Made by a program: the position numbers and the translations under genes. This document shows, in pieces, positions 6,552-60,911 of a stretch of DNA of 64,000 nucleotides (its first letter is position 1; every line of letters begins with the position of its first letter). The notes below the pieces were generated by a model. The model searched no databases. It was not told where the DNA came from and worked only from the letters and a program-made list of their open reading frames with translations. The DNA comes from Escherichia coli (lineage in GTDB: Bacteria > Pseudomonadota > Gammaproteobacteria > Enterobacterales > Enterobacteriaceae), in NCBI RefSeq assembly GCF_003018235.1, contig NZ_CP027437.1; one strand, 5' to 3'.

Positions 6552-7363
6552 CCGAATCAGTAGCCCGTTTGCGTGGCGAACAGTTAACCCTCGGATATGG
6601 CAAATATACCGTTGCGGAAAATCTGACTGTAGAAATTCCTGATGGTCACTTCACGGCAATTATCGGGCCAAATGGCTGCGGTAAATCCACGTTACTGCGT
6701 ACTTTAAGCCGCCTGATGACGCCTGCTCACGGGCATGTCTGGCTGGATGGTGAGCACATTCAACATTACGCCAGTAAAGAGGTTGCACGCCGGATTGGCC
6801 TGTTGGCGCAAAATGCTACCACGCCGGGCGATATCACCGTGCAGGAGCTGGTGGCGCGTGGACGTTACCCGCATCAACCGCTGTTTACCCGCTGGCGCAA
6901 AGAGGATGAAGAAGCGGTAACGAAAGCGATGCAGGCCACGGGAATCACTCATCTGGCAGATCAAAGCGTGGATACCCTTTCTGGCGGACAACGCCAGCGA
7001 GCGTGGATAGCAATGGTGCTGGCCCAGGAAACGGCAATTATGCTGCTCGATGAACCAACGACCTGGCTGGATATCAGTCATCAGATTGATTTGCTGGAAC
7101 TGTTAAGCGAACTGAACCGCGAGAAAGGCTATACCCTGGCGGCGGTGCTGCACGATCTTAATCAGGCCTGTCGTTACGCCAGCCATTTGATTGCATTGCG
7201 GGAAGGGAAAATTGTTGCTCAGGGAGCGCCGAAGGAGATTGTCACTGCTGAATTGATCGAGCGCATTTATGGTCTGCGCTGCATGATTATTGACGACCCG
7301 GTTGCCGGAACGCCGCTCGTGGTGCCGCTCGGACGAACGGCACCTTCAACCGCAAATAGTTAA
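6548..7363 (+). CDS. fepC: ferric enterobactin ABC transporter ATPase FepC
   Basis: ATG at 6548 overlaps the fepG stop; Walker A motif GPNGCGKST and ABC signature LSGGQRQR in the translation. Confidence 0.9.
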   Translation: MTESVARLRGEQLTLGYGKYTVAENLTVEIPDGHFTAIIGPNGCGKSTLLRTLSRLMTPAHGHVWLDGEHIQHYASKEVARRIGLLAQNATTPGDITVQELVARGRYPHQPLFTRWRKEDEEAVTKAMQATGITHLADQSVDTLSGGQRQRAWIAMVLAQETAIMLLDEPTTWLDISHQIDLLELLSELNREKGYTLAAVLHDLNQACRYASHLIALREGKIVAQGAPKEIVTAELIERIYGLRCMIIDDPVAGTPLVVPLGRTAPSTANS

Positions 7364-8493
7364 ACTAAGTGGTCTGCTATCATGGCATCCTGTTTTCTGG
7401 ATGCCATCGCATAGCGCAACAGCACGCCACCACAAGCCACCATCCCGCCGATCATCGCAGAAAGGATCACAATAATCGCCTTACCCGGACCGTCTTTTTT
7501 CACTGGCAATGACGGGCTTAACTGATATTTAAACGGCGTAAAATTCACATCGTTGATATTTGCTTTTGTTAACTGCTCAACAAGATACTGACGATTACGT
7601 AATTCACCGTTCAGTTCCGCAACGTTAGTAACCGCTTTTTCAATTTCCAGTTTGCGTTCAATACCGTCTGCGCCGAGAGAAATAGAGAAATCGGGGTCAT
7701 CTTTAACGGCCTGACCATTACTGTAAACGGGCTTTTTAATTCCTGCCGCGTTGGCAATGTCGAGTGAATAATTGAGGCGCTGAATGTTTGCATCAAGTTG
7801 ATTTTTCGTTTTAATGCGATCCTGAGCCAGTTTTTCTTTTTCAAACTGGGTTTTGATCTCCAGTTTATTACGGACGTTTTCTATCGACTCTTTCACCACC
7901 AACGCAGAGATATAATCGATATACCCGCTCAAAACGGTCTGCGCCTCTTCACTGGTTGGCGCGGTAAAACTTAGCGTCCAGGAGTTATACAGTGACGGTT
8001 CATCTTTTTTCTTACTGGCATTGTCATCAACCGCTTTCATTTTTTCGCTCAATGCGACAATTGCGCGATGCAAATCCAGCTCGTCGATTTTCGCCTCTTT
8101 TAATTGGTCCATCACATAAGGTGTTGAGCGCAGGTACTCTTCCAGCAAGCTAACCGACTGAAACTTCTTGATAAACAGGTTAAATGCTTCTGTACGATCA
8201 ATTTTGATATCCAGATCCAGCACACGAAGCTTAGTGAATGTTTTCTCAAGCGCCTGCCACTGAACAGGTTCTGGAGGCGTGACAACCGCCGCGCTGGTCC
8301 ATTTTTGCGGCAGGATGAAAGAGATCAGTAAACCTGCGCAGGCAAACGCAAAAACGACCGCCATGACCGTTTTTTTGGCCCGCCATAAAACTTCGATTAG
8401 ATTAAGTAAATCAATTTCATTATTACTGGGCGACGCCAGAGGATACTCGGGAAAATGAGTGTCACTTCCCTGTTTAATATTCAGTGATGACAT
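7360..8493 (-). CDS. fepE: polysaccharide co-polymerase family protein FepE
   Basis: Track ORF 7360..8613; start trimmed to MSSLNIKQG (ATG complement at 8491-8493) by recognition of FepE; stop overlaps the fepC stop (convergent). Confidence 0.85.
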   Translation of the reverse strand: MSSLNIKQGSDTHFPEYPLASPSNNEIDLLNLIEVLWRAKKTVMAVVFAFACAGLLISFILPQKWTSAAVVTPPEPVQWQALEKTFTKLRVLDLDIKIDRTEAFNLFIKKFQSVSLLEEYLRSTPYVMDQLKEAKIDELDLHRAIVALSEKMKAVDDNASKKKDEPSLYNSWTLSFTAPTSEEAQTVLSGYIDYISALVVKESIENVRNKLEIKTQFEKEKLAQDRIKTKNQLDANIQRLNYSLDIANAAGIKKPVYSNGQAVKDDPDFSISLGADGIERKLEIEKAVTNVAELNGELRNRQYLVEQLTKANINDVNFTPFKYQLSPSLPVKKDGPGKAIIVILSAMIGGMVACGGVLLRYAMASRKQDAMIADHLV

Positions 8494-8663
8494 GGGGTAT
8501 AACCTGAAAATGAGTCCAATAAGAGTAAATCTCCACGGCCCCCACTCTACCAGTTGGTGAGATTTATCCGAAGCTGAAGTTTGTAAATTACTCCCACTGA
8601 ATGCAACATTCACTCTATTTCAGAGAAACACCCACCAAATTTATAAATTAAACAAATGATAAA

Positions 8664-8690
8664 CCCATAATTATTTTCTGTAATTATGGG
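8664..8690 (-). terminator. perfect AT-rich palindrome downstream of entF (possible terminator or operator)
   Basis: cccataatta ttttctg taattatggg is a 10-bp perfect inverted repeat followed by a T-rich run on the minus strand. Confidence 0.3.
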
Positions 8691-8708
8691 TTTATAGATA
8701 ATATAAAT

Positions 8709-11700
8709 TTACTTATTTAGCGTCGCACGAATAATCGGCCCAATTTTTTCAAACGCCACCGGAGAGATAATATCCACATGCGCACAATCCTGACGATAGA
8801 TATCCAGCTCAGCAATCCACGGTGCCCAGGCCTGTTCAGGACTCATACCTTCCTGAAGCGTGCGTTCGGCAACAAATAGCGTCGCTTTACCATCAAACGG
8901 TACGCTATGAGCTGTCGTCAGCAGGCGCACAGCATCAGCGTAGTTGCCTTCAATGGTGGTAAACAACTCCGTTGAAGTACTTCCCTGCTGTGCCGCCAGG
9001 AAGGCTTCGCGCTCGCGGTTAATCTCCGCCAGCACTTCCGGGTCCAGACCATTAGCCTCTTTTTCCTGCCAGTTTTGCGTTTCTGGCGGCCAGGTATCCA
9101 GCAAGCCAAGAAATGCCACCTGTTCGCCACGGGCACGCAGTCGCGCCGCAATGCCCTGCGCCAGCGTACCGCCCAGCGAATACCCCAGCAGGTAATAAGG
9201 GCCGTGCGGTTGTTGTTCAAGTAACGTTGCCAGATGCGCTTCGCAGACTTCATCCAGGTTTGCCGCGGTCTGCATGGGGCCATGAGGGCGCGGCGACTGA
9301 ATGCCAATAATCGACCATTGTGGATCGAGATAACGCGAAAGCACGCTAAACTGCCAGGCAAAACCGGAGGCCGGATGGAAACAAAACAGCGTCGGGCCAT
9401 TACCTTCACGCAACGGCAGAATGGTTTCGAATCCCATGCGCTGGGTGCTGTCTTCTTCACCATCAATAATCGTTGCCAGTTTGGCGACAGTTGACGCGAC
9501 CATCACCTGCCCCGGCGTCACCTGGCGGGTAAACTGCCGACTTAACTGCGCAGCCAGTTTCATTGCCAGTAGCGAATGACCGCCAAGCGCAAAGAAATCA
9601 GCATCGGCATCCTGCACGTCACAACCCAGCAACGACGAGAATGCCGCGGCGATAATCGTTTCACTGCCCGCTTTCGGCGCACGCCCCGGCGCTTGTGCCT
9701 TCAGTTCAGGCAACGGTAAGGCTTTGCGATCCAGCTTGCCGTTGGCGCTAAGCGGCAACTGCGGAAGTTGCAGCAGAACCACGGGCACCATATGCGGTGG
9801 CAATGTTTCGCGCAACTGCGCCTGCAATGCAGTGGTATCCAGCGGCAGGCCTGATTGCGACACCAGATACCCAACCAACTGACGCGCATCGCCTCCCGTT
9901 GCGGCAGCCTGGTTAATGACGCAGGCGTGGGTAACGGCCTGTTCGACATCCGGCAGTGCCTGCATCACGCGATCGATTTCGCCCAGTTCAATACGCTGCC
10001 CGCGAATTTTTAGCTGATCGTCACTGCGCCCGAGGTACTCCACCGCGCCGTTATCCAGCCAGCGGGCAACGTCTCCGGTACGGTACATCCGTTCGCCAGG
10101 GGCAAAAGGATCGGCAATAAAGCGGCTGGCGGTCAGATCGGGTCGTCCAAGATACCCCTGCGCCAGTTGAATACCGGTGAGATAGAGATCTCCCGCCACA
10201 CCCGGCGGCACCGGATGCATCATCGCATCAAGAATACGCAGGCCCGTATTCCACACCGGATAACCAATCGGCACACTGCTGCCGCGCACCTGTGCCAGTT
10301 CCTCGCCAAAAGCCGGATACCAGCTGACATCTACCGCCGCTTCCGTCGGGCCATATAAATTATGCAACGGCGCGCTGGTTAACTGTTGCCATTCGCGGCA
10401 TAAATCAGCGGGTAAGGCCTCACCACTACAGAAAACCTGTTTCAACGTCGCGCAATTCTGACGAGCGGTTTGCGGAGTCAGCGATGCAACAAATGCCGCC
10501 AGCATCGACGGCACAAAGTGCGTGGTCGTTACACCATATTCGGCAAAGAATTGCTGCATAGCGAGCGGGTCGCGGTGCGCTTCCGGTTCAGCCATCACCA
10601 GTTTAGCCCCGGCAATAAACGGCCAGAAAAACTCCCACACCGAGACATCAAAACTGCACGGCGTTTTTTGGGCAACGACATCTTCGCCTGTAAGCGGGTA
10701 GTGGTTTTGCATCCAAAGCAGGCGGTTAACGATAGCCGTCTGCCCGACCATTACCCCTTTTGGTCTGCCGGTGGAACCTGAGGTGAAGATGATATAAGCC
10801 GTGTGGTGCGGTTGTGAAAGCTGCAGCGGCGCACTGCCCTGCGGTGTAAGCGGGGCGTTATAGCAAAGGTTGGTTAAATCTGGAACATCGGCAAAGCGCG
10901 GCAGTTGATCGTCGGTGGTGATTAACAGCGACGGACGCGCATCTTCCAGCATCATTTTCAAGCGATCGTCCGGATAACCGGTATCCAGCGGTAGCCAGGC
11001 CGCGCCAGCTTCAACTATCGCATGTAGCGCCAGGGTCAAAAAGACCGAGCGCGGTAGCGCCACCGCCACGCTGTCCCCTGGTTTAACGCCGCGCTCACGC
11101 AGCAGATTCGCCAGCGCCACCACCTGCTCGCGCATTTCCCGATAGCTGAACTGGTAACGCGCATCTGCCAGCGCCGGAGCATGCGGCGTTTTTGCCGCTT
11201 GTTCTGCCACCAGCGCGCTAAGCGTGGTTTCTGGAATCTCAACCTGAGTGGCGTTGATCTGCGCCAGCTGCGCATACTCACCTGGCAGCATAATATCGAC
11301 ATCGCCGCACAACAGCGCCGGATCCGCGGCGAACTGGGCAATCAGCATTTTCAGGCGTTCAGCATGCTGGATTAACGTTGGCTCATCGTAACGCTGTTTA
11401 TTGGCGAGGATCTCAATACTCAAATCACCGTGTTCATCCGGGAACAGTGCCAGTTCAAGGTCATTAACCGGACCGGTTGCTAGTGTATGGGTTTGCGCCT
11501 GAACACCAGGAATATCCAGTTGGTAATCAAATACCTTGATATTGAGTACCGGACCAAACAGCGGTTCATCACCTGCCGCTCGCCCGCTGTCACGGACAAT
11601 TTGTTCGGCATCGTAACGTTGATGACGACGCATTTTTTTCAGTTGTGCTGCCAGTCGGGTTGCCAGTTGCGGCAGCGTTTCTTGCGCCGCAATGTGAATA

Positions 11701-12590
11701 CCCAACGGTAAAACGTTGAGCACGGGTCCGGTAGCCGTCAGCGCCGCCGAGCCCAGTCGACGCATAAAGATAAATCCGGCAGCGTAGTCCATGCGGTTGC
11801 ACAATCGCCCCAGCCACAAAGCCGTCAGCGCAAGGGCTAAATCGGTACGCTGCACACCTGAAAGTTGCGTAGCCAGCTGGCGGAATTCCCCGTCGGTAAA
11901 TTCCAGTTTCAGGCGCAAAATATCTGCCGAAGCGCTGCGCCCCGGTAAAGGTGCCGGAGAAAGTGACGCGGGCGGTGGCAGTTGACGACGCTGTTCCGCC
12001 CAGAATGCCGCATCACGCTGCCAGGCTTCGCTTTCGCGGTATTGCTGGTACTCTTCCACTACATCAGCGAAAGGCGTAAACGGCGAAGCAGGCGTTGGTT
12101 CGCCACGCAGCAATGCGCAGTAAATATTGGCGATCTGGCGTGTAATGGCCGGGAAACTGAAGCCATCGACCAGCAAATGGTGATAACGCTGATACCAGTA
12201 CCAGCGGTTATCCGCCACCTGTATCAGTTGATGAAAGACCAGTGGTTTACCACTATCGACGCGCAGATCTTGTTGCAAATCCGCCTGCATTAATGCCCGC
12301 GCAGTACCGTGCGGATCAATGTTGGTTCGCAGGTCGATAATTTCTGGCAGTTCGAACGTCTGCGCATCATCGACCCACTGCCAGACTTCGCCGTTATCTT
12401 CCGTAAAACGCATCCGCAACGTATCTGCTTGCGCTAGTCCGGCAACCACCGCGCGGGCCAGTAATGGCGCATCAACCTCTCCGGTTAACTCAACGTAATG
12501 CGCCACGCTCCAGGCGGAGGGTAAATCCGACAGTTTTTCTGCCATCCAGATGCCGGGCTGTGCGGCGACCAAAGGTAAATGCTGGCTCAT
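8709..12590 (-). CDS. entF: enterobactin non-ribosomal peptide synthetase EntF
   Basis: 1293-aa ORF with adenylation-domain motifs (YIIFTSGSTGRPKGV) and a C-terminal thioesterase GYSLGG motif. Confidence 0.95.
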   Translation of the reverse strand: MSQHLPLVAAQPGIWMAEKLSDLPSAWSVAHYVELTGEVDAPLLARAVVAGLAQADTLRMRFTEDNGEVWQWVDDAQTFELPEIIDLRTNIDPHGTARALMQADLQQDLRVDSGKPLVFHQLIQVADNRWYWYQRYHHLLVDGFSFPAITRQIANIYCALLRGEPTPASPFTPFADVVEEYQQYRESEAWQRDAAFWAEQRRQLPPPASLSPAPLPGRSASADILRLKLEFTDGEFRQLATQLSGVQRTDLALALTALWLGRLCNRMDYAAGFIFMRRLGSAALTATGPVLNVLPLGIHIAAQETLPQLATRLAAQLKKMRRHQRYDAEQIVRDSGRAAGDEPLFGPVLNIKVFDYQLDIPGVQAQTHTLATGPVNDLELALFPDEHGDLSIEILANKQRYDEPTLIQHAERLKMLIAQFAADPALLCGDVDIMLPGEYAQLAQINATQVEIPETTLSALVAEQAAKTPHAPALADARYQFSYREMREQVVALANLLRERGVKPGDSVAVALPRSVFLTLALHAIVEAGAAWLPLDTGYPDDRLKMMLEDARPSLLITTDDQLPRFADVPDLTNLCYNAPLTPQGSAPLQLSQPHHTAYIIFTSGSTGRPKGVMVGQTAIVNRLLWMQNHYPLTGEDVVAQKTPCSFDVSVWEFFWPFIAGAKLVMAEPEAHRDPLAMQQFFAEYGVTTTHFVPSMLAAFVASLTPQTARQNCATLKQVFCSGEALPADLCREWQQLTSAPLHNLYGPTEAAVDVSWYPAFGEELAQVRGSSVPIGYPVWNTGLRILDAMMHPVPPGVAGDLYLTGIQLAQGYLGRPDLTASRFIADPFAPGERMYRTGDVARWLDNGAVEYLGRSDDQLKIRGQRIELGEIDRVMQALPDVEQAVTHACVINQAAATGGDARQLVGYLVSQSGLPLDTTALQAQLRETLPPHMVPVVLLQLPQLPLSANGKLDRKALPLPELKAQAPGRAPKAGSETIIAAAFSSLLGCDVQDADADFFALGGHSLLAMKLAAQLSRQFTRQVTPGQVMVASTVAKLATIIDGEEDSTQRMGFETILPLREGNGPTLFCFHPASGFAWQFSVLSRYLDPQWSIIGIQSPRPHGPMQTAANLDEVCEAHLATLLEQQPHGPYYLLGYSLGGTLAQGIAARLRARGEQVAFLGLLDTWPPETQNWQEKEANGLDPEVLAEINREREAFLAAQQGSTSTELFTTIEGNYADAVRLLTTAHSVPFDGKATLFVAERTLQEGMSPEQAWAPWIAELDIYRQDCAHVDIISPVAFEKIGPIIRATLNK

Positions 12591-17288: not shown

Positions 17289-17437
17289 TTGACAATACCC
17301 GGAGCGATTCGCCCGCAGCCAATGCTGACTGCGGGCGAAAGTGTAAAGCAGGTGCCTTACTACTCTGACCTGACAACCGGATATGCGGGGATTACTCCCA
17401 TAAGCGCTAACTTAAGGGATTACTCCCCGCACAACGG

Positions 17438-17590
17438 CTACTTCTTCGGTTCGTAAGCGAGAACAGCCTTAAACTCAATATTACGTTCCTTCACCGTAAA
17501 CTCACACAGCGAGTCGCGGACCAGAAGCGTAAATCCCAGCACCGTTAAACACAGCACTATGACTGCCACAAGGGCATATTTCGTCAGCAT
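17438..17590 (-). CDS. hokE: Hok-family membrane toxin, copy 1 (one substitution versus HokE: G25R)
   Basis: 50 codons [50 protein letters not shown]; overlapped out of frame by the mok-like ORF 17502..17735. Confidence 0.8.
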
Positions 17591-17735
17591 GTTTATATTG
17601 CCTCCATGCGAAGAAGGGACTACCATCCGAGTTGTTGAGGTTCGGAGTGGCAGCCCCAGGATTGATAGAAATATCTCCTGGGGCTTCATCTTTCCAGATC
17701 TCAGAGTTAACCTGAAACCGGAAAGCTTCAGGCAC
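17502..17735 (-). CDS. Mok-like overlapping reading frame of hok copy 1
   Basis: 77-aa ORF in a different frame covering most of hok, the arrangement known for hok/sok loci. Confidence 0.5.
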
Positions 17736-17940
17736 CCGCAGCTATCTTACCTTTCCTCAACAAAATAGCTGTTTATTTATACAGCAAATCCTGTTTCGGA
17801 CTTCTGTTGGCAAAACTGATCATTGCCCTTAAAACGACATCGCCCGCAGCCATTGCTGACCGCGGGCGAAAGTGTAAAACAGGTGCCTTACCACCCTGAC
17901 CTGACAACCGGATATGCGGGGATTGCTCCCCGCACAACGG

Positions 17941-18093
17941 CTACTTCTTCGGTTCGTAAGCGAGAACAGCCCTGAACTCAATATTACGTTCGTTCACCGT
18001 AAACTCACACAGCGAGTCTCCGACCAGAAGCGTAAATCCCAGCACCGTTAAACACAGCACTATGACTGCCACAAGGGCATATTTCGTCAGCAT
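17941..18093 (-). CDS. Hok-family toxin, copy 2 (K34N and K41R versus HokE)
   Basis: [50 protein letters not shown]; mok-like ORF 18005..18193 overlaps. Confidence 0.75.
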
Positions 18094-18193
18094 GTTTATA
18101 TTGCCTCCATGCGAAGAAGGGACTACCATCCAAATTGTTCAGGTTTGGGTAGGTAGCCCCAGGGTTGATAGAAATATCGTCCTGGGGCTTCAT
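18005..18193 (-). CDS. Mok-like overlapping frame of hok copy 2 (N-terminus differs from copy 1)
   Basis: 62-aa overlapping [16 protein letters not shown]... Confidence 0.4.
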
Positions 18194-18444
18194 CTTTCCA
18201 GACCTCAGAGTTAACCTGAAACCGGAAAGCTTCAGGCACCCGCTGTTATCTTACCCTTCCTCAGCAAAATAGCTGTTTATTTATACAGTGAATCCTGTTT
18301 CGGACTTCTGTTGGCAAAACTGATCATTGCCCTTAAAACGACATCGCCCGCAGCCATTGCTGACCGCGGGCGAAAGTGTAAAACAGGTGCCTTACCACCC
18401 TGACCTGACAACCGGATATGCGGGGATTACTCCCCGCACAACGG

Positions 18445-18597
18445 CTACTTCTTCGGTTCGTAAGCGAGAACAGCCTTAAACTCAATATTACGTTCCTTCA
18501 CCGTAAACTCACACAGCGAGTCTCCGACCAGAAGCGTAAATCCCAGTACCGTCAAACACAGCACTATGACTGCCACAAGGGCATATTTCGTCAGCAT
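18445..18597 (-). CDS. Hok-family toxin, copy 3 (identical to the HokE sequence I recall)
   Basis: [50 protein letters not shown]; here the hok frame stays open upstream to 18741 and begins with the Mok N-terminus (MPEAFRFQV...), i.e. the mok and hok frames are fused. Confidence 0.75.
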
Positions 18598-19028
18598 GTT
18601 TATATTGCCTCCATGCGAAGAAGGGACTACCATCCAAATTGTCTGGTTTGGAGTGGCAGCCCCAGGGTTGATAGAAATATCTCCTGGGGCTTCATCTTTC
18701 CAGACCTCAGAGTAAACCTGAAACCGGAAAGCTTCAGGCACCCGCCGTTATCTTACCCTTCCTCAGCAAAATAGCTGTTTATTTATACAGTGAGTCCTGT
18801 TTCGGACTTCTCACTCCTCATTTGATCAACTGAAGCTGAACCCGTTTTTTTCTGCATGCCTCAATCGTCAAAATTCTTCGCCACCAGCCAGCTCTGCCAT
18901 AACTTGTCACATTGCAAAAGTAGCCAAATTGCTTCAGTCACCATCACCAAAAAAAAGAAACATTCCAGAACTTCCGCATCTCGCCCAGCCGCTCCGACTT
19001 CTATACTGAATAGAAAACGCCAACATAA

Positions 19029-60224: not shown

Positions 60225-60911
60225 TTAGAAGTTCAGATTTTTCAGTGCATTCAGTGCAGAGCCCACATCCTCAGCGTCGCGCAGGGACAGTGCGCCATAG
60301 CCCCCGGCCATGAATGCTTTGGCCTGGGTACGGGAGAGTCCGACATCACGCAGGACTCTTTCGATTTTTTTCTGTTCGGGGATTTCCCCGCGGGCCAGCG
60401 CGTTCTTGACGTCGCTGATCCGCGCCTCGTCGTTAGACGGAAACGTCACCAGACTGACTTCCCAGAGGTCGATTTCTTTCAACAGAAAGGCTTCTTTGCT
60501 CCGGTCGTATTCCCAGTCTTTCAGGACGTACCCAATAGAAAGGCCGGTTAACGAACCGGCCTTCATGTGTGCATGTGCGCGTTTTGCGAGGGGATCATCA
60601 TCAATAAGCAACCGTCCCCTGACGTAAAGCCCGACATCGTCTTCCTTCATTTCGGTGTAAACACCGATGGGTTCATCCATGCGGTGCTGCCAGAGCAGCG
60701 CAGGTAACGCTTTTCTGTCACTCCACGCCCGCAGGGAAGCAGCAAATGCCCCGGACATCACCACATCATCGTGGCTGTCCTTTACACCAAAGACGGAGCC
60801 ATACCCTTCAAACTCACCGGAGTCACTGACAGATTTCAGACTCAGCGGTACATCAAGACGTTGTTTCGTCTGCATTGGCGTTATCCTTCTGCTTACCGGC
60901 TTTACTGCCAT
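60225..60911 (-). CDS. prohead maturation protease, HK97 family
   Basis: 228-aa ORF between portal and capsid; the true start may lie at an internal Met, since the track ORF overlaps the portal end by 59 nt. Confidence 0.75.
   Translation of the reverse strand: MAVKPVSRRITPMQTKQRLDVPLSLKSVSDSGEFEGYGSVFGVKDSHDDVVMSGAFAASLRAWSDRKALPALLWQHRMDEPIGVYTEMKEDDVGLYVRGRLLIDDDPLAKRAHAHMKAGSLTGLSIGYVLKDWEYDRSKEAFLLKEIDLWEVSLVTFPSNDEARISDVKNALARGEIPEQKKIERVLRDVGLSRTQAKAFMAGGYGALSLRDAEDVGSALNALKNLNF

Follow-up and report, generated by a model that had tools for sequence, protein, structure and literature searches.

The spacer between entF and fepE in this E. coli genome carries a hairpin that very likely acts as a Rho-independent terminator, ending the Fur-regulated fes-ybdZ-entF transcript and leaving fepE to be expressed mainly from a promoter of its own. 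The element lies within a window of 64 kb (the whole stretch of DNA that was analysed), in which both genes are encoded on the minus strand, as a preliminary description of this DNA had recognized in calling them co-directional, so that the minus strand is the RNA-like strand throughout. The two genes are:

8709..12590, minus strand: entF coding sequence, 1293 aa, taken from the list of open reading frames, with its TAA stop codon at 8711-8709
7360..8493, minus strand: fepE, i.e., wzz(fepE), the O-antigen chain-length regulator, 377 aa, with its ATG at 8493, assigned from the translation and the RefSeq annotation of matching loci

The last 249 amino acids of entF are 97% identical to RefSeq-annotated EntF loci. 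In RefSeq, wzz(fepE) starts 215 nt past the entF stop codon (in E. coli 118UI, whose spacer is identical, and in the K-12 and O157 loci), which places the fepE ATG at position 8493 (MSSLNIKQGSD...) rather than at the GTG at 8613, from where the preliminary description had started the gene and which had limited its interval to 8614-8708. The true entF-fepE spacer is therefore 8494-8708 (34% GC), with the hairpin at its entF-proximal end. We rejected the extension of fepE to GTG-8613, which is not in the RefSeq annotation and spans a stretch with a 1-nt indel in Escherichia sp. MOD1-EC7003; the small open reading frames of the spacer (20–33 aa) were likewise unsupported, and none of them overlaps the hairpin. 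In E. coli 118UI (locus L002, 1716-2834), where the spacer is 100% identical to that of the window, wzz(fepE) is annotated with 1119 bp (372 aa), whereas the gene of the window and of K-12 has 1134 bp (377 aa), so that either the window stems from a different strain or the two genes differ at their 3' ends.

The palindrome first reported at this site, cccataattattttctgtaattatggg, is found at 8664-8690 with the letters as given, but the 10-bp stem ascribed to it was too short: the inverted repeat comprises 15 nt per arm. The arms, 8659-8673 and 8681-8695, are 100% complementary, and the complete element consists of the following parts:

8659..8695, minus strand: candidate terminator hairpin, a 15-nt perfect inverted repeat with a 7-nt loop
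8695-8681, minus strand: 5' arm of the hairpin, AUAAACCCAUAAUUA
8680-8674, minus strand: loop of the hairpin, CAGAAAA, 7 nt
8673-8659, minus strand: 3' arm of the hairpin, UAAUUAUGGGUUUAU
8643..8658, minus strand: U-rich tail, CAUUUGUUUAAUUUAU, 10 U in 16 nt, flagged by a simple terminator-like scan

Read along the sense strand, the order is UAA, 13 nt, AUAAACCCAUAAUUA, CAGAAAA, UAAUUAUGGGUUUAU and CAUUUGUUUAAUUUAU, with the stem starting 14 nt past the entF stop. Three of the 15 stem pairs are G-C, and these are consecutive (CCC/GGG) at the base adjoining the U-run (orthologues have 2–5 G-C pairs), while the upstream AUAAA pairs with the first U residues to form outer A-U pairs that lengthen the stem. 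The hairpin alone has a ΔG of −15.3 kcal/mol, and a 69-nt RNA around it folds with −16.4 kcal/mol versus −6.9 ± 2.5 kcal/mol in shuffled sequences (z = −3.8). The fold of the whole spacer reaches z = −4.1, with long-range helices 3' of the hairpin that span the fepE promoter and the predicted transcription start site (TSS).

Perfect hairpins with arms of at least 10 nt occur at three distinct loci in the window. The one described here is the longest, and the sole one with arms of at least 13 nt. Dinucleotide-preserving shuffles of the window (n = 100) contained on average 0.79 hairpins with arms of at least 10 nt and 0 with arms of at least 13 nt. When only the spacer was shuffled (n = 20,000), an arm of at least 10 nt was obtained in 0.4% of cases and an arm of at least 15 nt in none. 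The palindrome is thus confirmed to be real and not an artefact of base composition. That it arose by chance, or is the relic of a mobile or repeat element (REP/BIME, MITE, or IS end), could be argued from the ease with which AT-rich spacers yield short palindromes and from an IS1 insertion found in the spacer of one strain. We regard such an origin as next to impossible: besides the outcome of the local shuffles, the hairpin has a single copy in the window at up to three mismatches, is found at a median of one location per genome among 4831 E. coli genomes, keeps the same position across genera, and has no Rfam family match. In the Rfam 15 scan of positions 8300-8900 at E ≤ 10, no family reached its gathering threshold, the best scores being 13–22 bits against thresholds of 47–195 and belonging to unrelated eukaryotic and Staphylococcus families. 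Another of the three loci with perfect hairpins, at 60540-60563, consists of AAGGCCGGTT-AACG-AACCGGCCTT with 10-bp arms. Elsewhere in the window, between entD and ybdK (17309-18811), we observed three tandem copies of a hok/sok-type toxin locus of ~504 bp each, 82–97% identical to one another, each with a Hok-like peptide of ~50 aa on the minus strand and a GC-rich hairpin, TCGCCCGCGGTCAGCAATGGCTGCGGGCGA; the CFT073 RefSeq annotation has only one hokE between entD and ybdK.

To follow the element across species, we searched 100,044 species genomes (one genome per species) with FepE as the anchor, which yielded 77 loci. In Escherichia, Citrobacter, Salmonella, and Intestinirhabdus, entF directly precedes fepE; the two genes are 1.5 kb apart in two Pseudocitrobacter, and they are not adjacent in Enterobacter, Lelliottia, Buttiauxella, Cedecea and others. 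Twenty-three adjacent spacers, including three E. coli alleles, were compared, and in 22 of them the strongest local structure just past the entF stop is a hairpin that aligns with that of the window, is evidently orthologous to it, and precedes a T-run. Only Citrobacter sp. MGH106 deviates: its spacer is longer and forms another, GC-rich hairpin, and it is not part of the covariation set (n = 22). Across these 22 spacers, hairpin and T-tail persist although the surrounding sequence has diverged, and the distance from the stop codon to the hairpin ranges from 14–18 nt in Escherichia to about 30–40 nt in Citrobacter and Salmonella.

The RNAalifold consensus of the 22 segments (MAFFT alignment) contains 13 pairs, 9 of them with double changes. 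In a 14-pair structure, 94.1% of the alignment cells are paired, compared to 78.7 ± 1.4% in shuffled alignments and 34–51% when the 3' partners are slid by 1–3 columns, bearing in mind that the sequences are related and the cells do not represent independent events. Compensatory double changes affect 10 of the 14 pairs, and none of 500 shuffles attained the covariation score of 0.472 (0.206 in shuffles). The sequences themselves reveal at least eight separate compensations. At the base of the stem, CCC/GGG is replaced by GCC/GGC in Escherichia sp. MOD1, by UCC/GGA in Escherichia sp. E1V33, and by CUC/GAG in S. arizonae, and AAACCC stands against AACCCC or AACUCC in Citrobacter. CAUAA/UUAUG becomes CGUAA/UUACG in the C. 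amalonaticus group and CUUAA/UUAAG in Intestinirhabdus. Two further compensations are found within E. coli, namely AUAAA/UUUAU to AUUAA/UUAAU (strains 19KM1778 and WP5-S17) and AAACCC/GGGUUU to AAAACC/GGUUUU (CFT073).

The structure is also strand-specific. U·G or G·U pairs are present at two stem positions in 8–9 of the 22 sequences, and all 22 sense-strand hairpins fold with −11.5 to −17.8 kcal/mol, whereas the reverse complements weaken to −3.2, −5.1, and −5.8 kcal/mol in several Citrobacter. On the sense strand, the tail is T-rich in all 22 orthologues and contains 7.6 T per 12 nt on average, compared to a mean of 2.4 T in the 6–10 nt available on the antisense side. Together, the G·U pairs and the sense-only T-tail argue for selection on an RNA read in the direction of entF and not on the symmetry of duplex DNA. 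The conservation of structure rather than sequence across four genera indicates an RNA element and not a DNA operator, and with selection acting on RNA, the main function cannot be that of a palindromic operator.

Such an operator, serving an internal promoter, had been one of the two functions proposed in the preliminary description. In its broader form, the proposal is that the palindrome binds a dimeric regulator (Fur or another) of fepE or entF. Its dyad symmetry is perfect, the AT-rich region is near an H-NS-bound segment, and ATAAT/ATTAT within the arms resembles Fur half-sites; like a Fur box (19-bp GATAATGATAATCATTATC), it is an AT-rich dyad with these motifs inside the Fur-controlled enterobactin cluster. 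Yet it matches the 19-bp Fur consensus at no more than 12/19 positions, a score shared by over 100 further sites of the window, whereas the positive controls, the known Fur boxes of fepD-entS and fepB-entC located in this window, score 15–16/19. The half-site spacing is wrong for a Fur box, and the arm sequence changes freely between species with pairing kept, so that the half-sites are not conserved, and the G·U pairs break the DNA symmetry. The dyad centre precedes the predicted fepE TSS by ~140 bp, and the conserved fepE promoter (8571-8544) is about 90–140 bp downstream of the hairpin. We consequently consider an operator role highly improbable. A sigma-70-like promoter within the hairpin (ATTACA-17-TATCAT, 8684-8656) was rejected as well, since such matches occur at a chance-level count and this one is lost in K-12 (TATCAT to TTTTAT).

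In the proposed terminator, the tail and the closing UUUAU of the stem combine into the run GGGUUUAUCAUUUGUUU, and the sequence after the stem is CAUUUGUUUAAUUU. In the window, T accounts for 6 of the first 10 and 10 of the first 16 nucleotides after the stem (8 of 10 in K-12), and the U-run beside the stem is broken by A, C, and A (UUUAUCAUUU, compared to UUUUUUAUUU in K-12). The K-12 type allele combines a 13-bp stem with UUUUUUAUUU, and the window allele a 15-bp stem with UUUAUCAUUU. Given the AT-rich stem (3/15 G-C pairs) and the interrupted U-run, the termination efficiency of the window allele could be modest. Canonical runs of U6–U8 are found in K-12, CFT073, and several other species; in CFT073, with its very divergent 246-bp spacer, a compensated hairpin of 12 bp is still followed by U7. 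A generic terminator scan returned 37 matches in 20 kb versus 26 ± 6 expected, close enough to chance that its terminator-like call alone weighs little.

Stable 3' hairpins protect mRNAs, and the element could in principle be no more than a stabilizer or processing barrier at the 3' end, with transcription ending elsewhere, e.g., by Rho-dependent termination in the untranslated spacer. The AT-rich stem and the imperfect proximal U-run of the window allele would fit this reading. A pure exonuclease barrier, however, has no need for the T-rich tail that follows the stem in 22 of 22 orthologues, or for the canonical U6–U8 runs just mentioned, and we judge it very unlikely that the hairpin serves as a barrier only.

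Within E. coli, the entF-fepE spacer is unusually variable. Among 5,426 complete genomes searched by megablast, identity to the window spacer is at least 99% in 678, 90–95% in 1,418, and 80–90% in 2,719, and a match is missing in ~595. This variability suggests that the spacer undergoes allelic exchange together with fepE. A more speculative idea, which we hold to be unlikely, is that the alleles constitute a lineage-tunable leak valve, in which differences in stem and U-tract could determine how much of the strongly iron-induced entF transcript continues into fepE in each lineage. If true, allele-dependent read-through would link iron starvation to O-antigen length. A related and equally tentative notion is that the released entF 3' end would act as an Hfq-binding 3'-UTR RNA; our full-text search found no literature on an entF-fepE terminator or stem-loop, or on entF in connection with RIL-seq or Hfq.

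The remainder of the spacer contains the following candidate regulatory elements of fepE:

8558..8571, minus strand: RcsB box, TCGGATAAATCTCA, fitting TN(G/A)GAN4TC(T/C)NA, at −78 to −65 from the fepE ATG
8544..8552, minus strand: extended −10 element of the fepE promoter, TGGTAGAGT, with CTGnTAGAnT kept in Escherichia, Citrobacter, and Salmonella
8627..8639, minus strand: equivalent of an H-NS footprint, TTTGGTGGGTGTT, placed by alignment with O157 and homologous in position only

The RcsB box and the −10 element fall in the best-conserved block of the spacer, TTTCGGATAAnTCTnA-N5-CTGnTAGAnT. Even the CFT073 spacer, which aligns with that of the window only at the hairpin, at the RcsB box and −10 element, and at the ribosome-binding region, retains both. 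In Salmonella SL1344, the same RcsB box (TCGGATAATTCTGA), located at −79 from the ATG, is bound by phospho-RcsB according to EMSA and DNase I protection, and corresponds to −36 to −22 relative to the SalCom TSS, which lies 43 nt upstream of the fepE ATG (PMC7913699). The position of the −10 element identified here fits this TSS, and by homology the fepE TSS in the window would be at ~8535-8537. In EHEC, H-NS protects TTTGCTGGTTATT from DNase I in the fepE promoter region, and a plasmid-borne fusion of the fepE promoter to gfp is active (PMC8669466); the footprint aligns with positions 8639-8627 of the window, just past the terminator tail. A further E. coli fepE fusion responds to SdiA (PMC11619404). 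The conserved block and the published fusions and TSS thus argue that fepE has its own regulated promoter.

Two natural variants of this promoter are worth recording. In K-12, the allele TCGGATAATTATCA (equivalent to 8544-8571 of the window) breaks the RcsB consensus by changing TC(T/C) to TAT, while the consensus is intact in the window, in O157, in CFT073, and in the other genera; as K-12 is without O-antigen, relaxed selection on the control of fepE is plausible. In E. coli 19KM1778 (locus L004, 2248-2945), an IS1 element is inserted in the spacer at CAACTGG (equivalent to ~8552), immediately 5' of the −10 hexamer of fepE. It parts this −10 from both the RcsB box and the entF terminator, and probably alters fepE expression.

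Published expression data show how strongly the iron response declines across the site, although databases and papers give fes-ybdZ-entF-fepE as one operon. Upon deletion of fur in the UPEC strain CFT073, RNA-seq shows that transcripts of fes, ybdZ, and entF rise 388-fold, 158-fold, and 294-fold, respectively, and that of fepE 4.9-fold (PMC7157518, Table S1). Exposure of an ExPEC O78 strain to serum induces fes, ybdZ, and entF but not fepE, which responds to complement instead (PMC4145685). In MG1655 under mild pressure, which elicits an iron-starvation signature, entF is 13.7-fold up and fepE is missing from the list of induced genes (PMC6049941). An efficient but leaky terminator predicts such step-downs from entF to fepE, but these are fold changes and not absolute levels, and if the fepE promoter had a high basal activity, this alone would make the fold change of fepE smaller. 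The ~5-fold Fur dependence of fepE in CFT073 implies that termination is incomplete. The E. coli Term-seq (Adams et al. 2021) and SMRT-Cappable-seq supplements contain no entries for entF or fepE; since the iron-replete media of these studies keep the ent genes repressed, missing 3' ends say little either way.

Of the other function proposed earlier, an internal attenuator or terminator that would reduce the expression of fepE compared to entF, we retain one half. The terminator is supported by the sense-strand anatomy, the covariation, and the Fur- and iron-dependent induction that largely ends before fepE; rather than an attenuator acting as a regulated switch, the data suggest a simple terminator at the end of the operon that allows some read-through. 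A conditional attenuator, whose efficiency would be modulated by the terminating ribosome, an antiterminator fold, or a factor, would couple O-antigen length to iron starvation. It could account for the ~5-fold Fur dependence that fepE keeps in CFT073, and it would agree with an Escherichia stem only 14 nt past the stop, near the footprint of a terminating ribosome, and with a U-tract whose quality varies between E. coli alleles. However, we saw no conserved alternative pairing, and the variable distance from stop to hairpin (14 to about 40 nt between genera) argues against obligatory coupling to the ribosome. Moreover, a transcript induced ~300-fold would need to leak through at only a few per cent to give a 5-fold response. 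Overall, a conditional attenuator appears quite unlikely.

An ordinary intrinsic terminator, slightly leaky, is probably the best description of the element, and we infer both termination at the hairpin and its efficiency from the lines of evidence given above. Like the Rho-independent terminators of other enterobacterial operons, it has a sense-strand hairpin near the stop codon with its G-C base next to a U-tract, it shows compensatory changes, and its stem is lengthened by pairing between A residues on the 5' side and the first Us of the tract. It differs from them in that the long 15-bp stem is very AT-rich and the proximal U-run is interrupted (UUUAUCAUUU). With partial terminators inside operons it shares the location between co-directional genes of one database operon and a sharp drop in expression with residual read-through. 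Here, however, the gene that follows is unrelated in function (LPS O-antigen length) and has a conserved promoter of its own, and the element is better seen as the end of the operon than as an internal tuning device.

According to the mechanism we propose, RNA polymerase would pass the entF stop codon and transcribe the 15-bp hairpin with its three G-C pairs at the base, followed by the U-rich tail. The hairpin would fold in the exit channel over a weak rU:dA hybrid, releasing most transcripts ~60–70 nt past the stop, and may also cap the 3' end of the entF mRNA against exonucleases. FepE would thereby be largely insulated from iron regulation, with its own promoter, located about 120 bp downstream of the hairpin and comprising the RcsB box and the extended −10 element, dominating, and a minority of read-through transcripts would supply the small Fur-dependent component of its expression. 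The fepE promoter responds to H-NS (PMC8669466), RcsB (PMC7913699), and SdiA (PMC11619404).

For the annotation of this locus, these findings would mean that the iron-regulated unit effectively ends after entF, consistent with a response of fepE to fur deletion that is ~60 times weaker than that of entF, and that fepE is best treated as a separate unit under H-NS, RcsB, and SdiA with minor read-through from upstream. Iron regulation of O-antigen length should accordingly not be inferred from operon membership.
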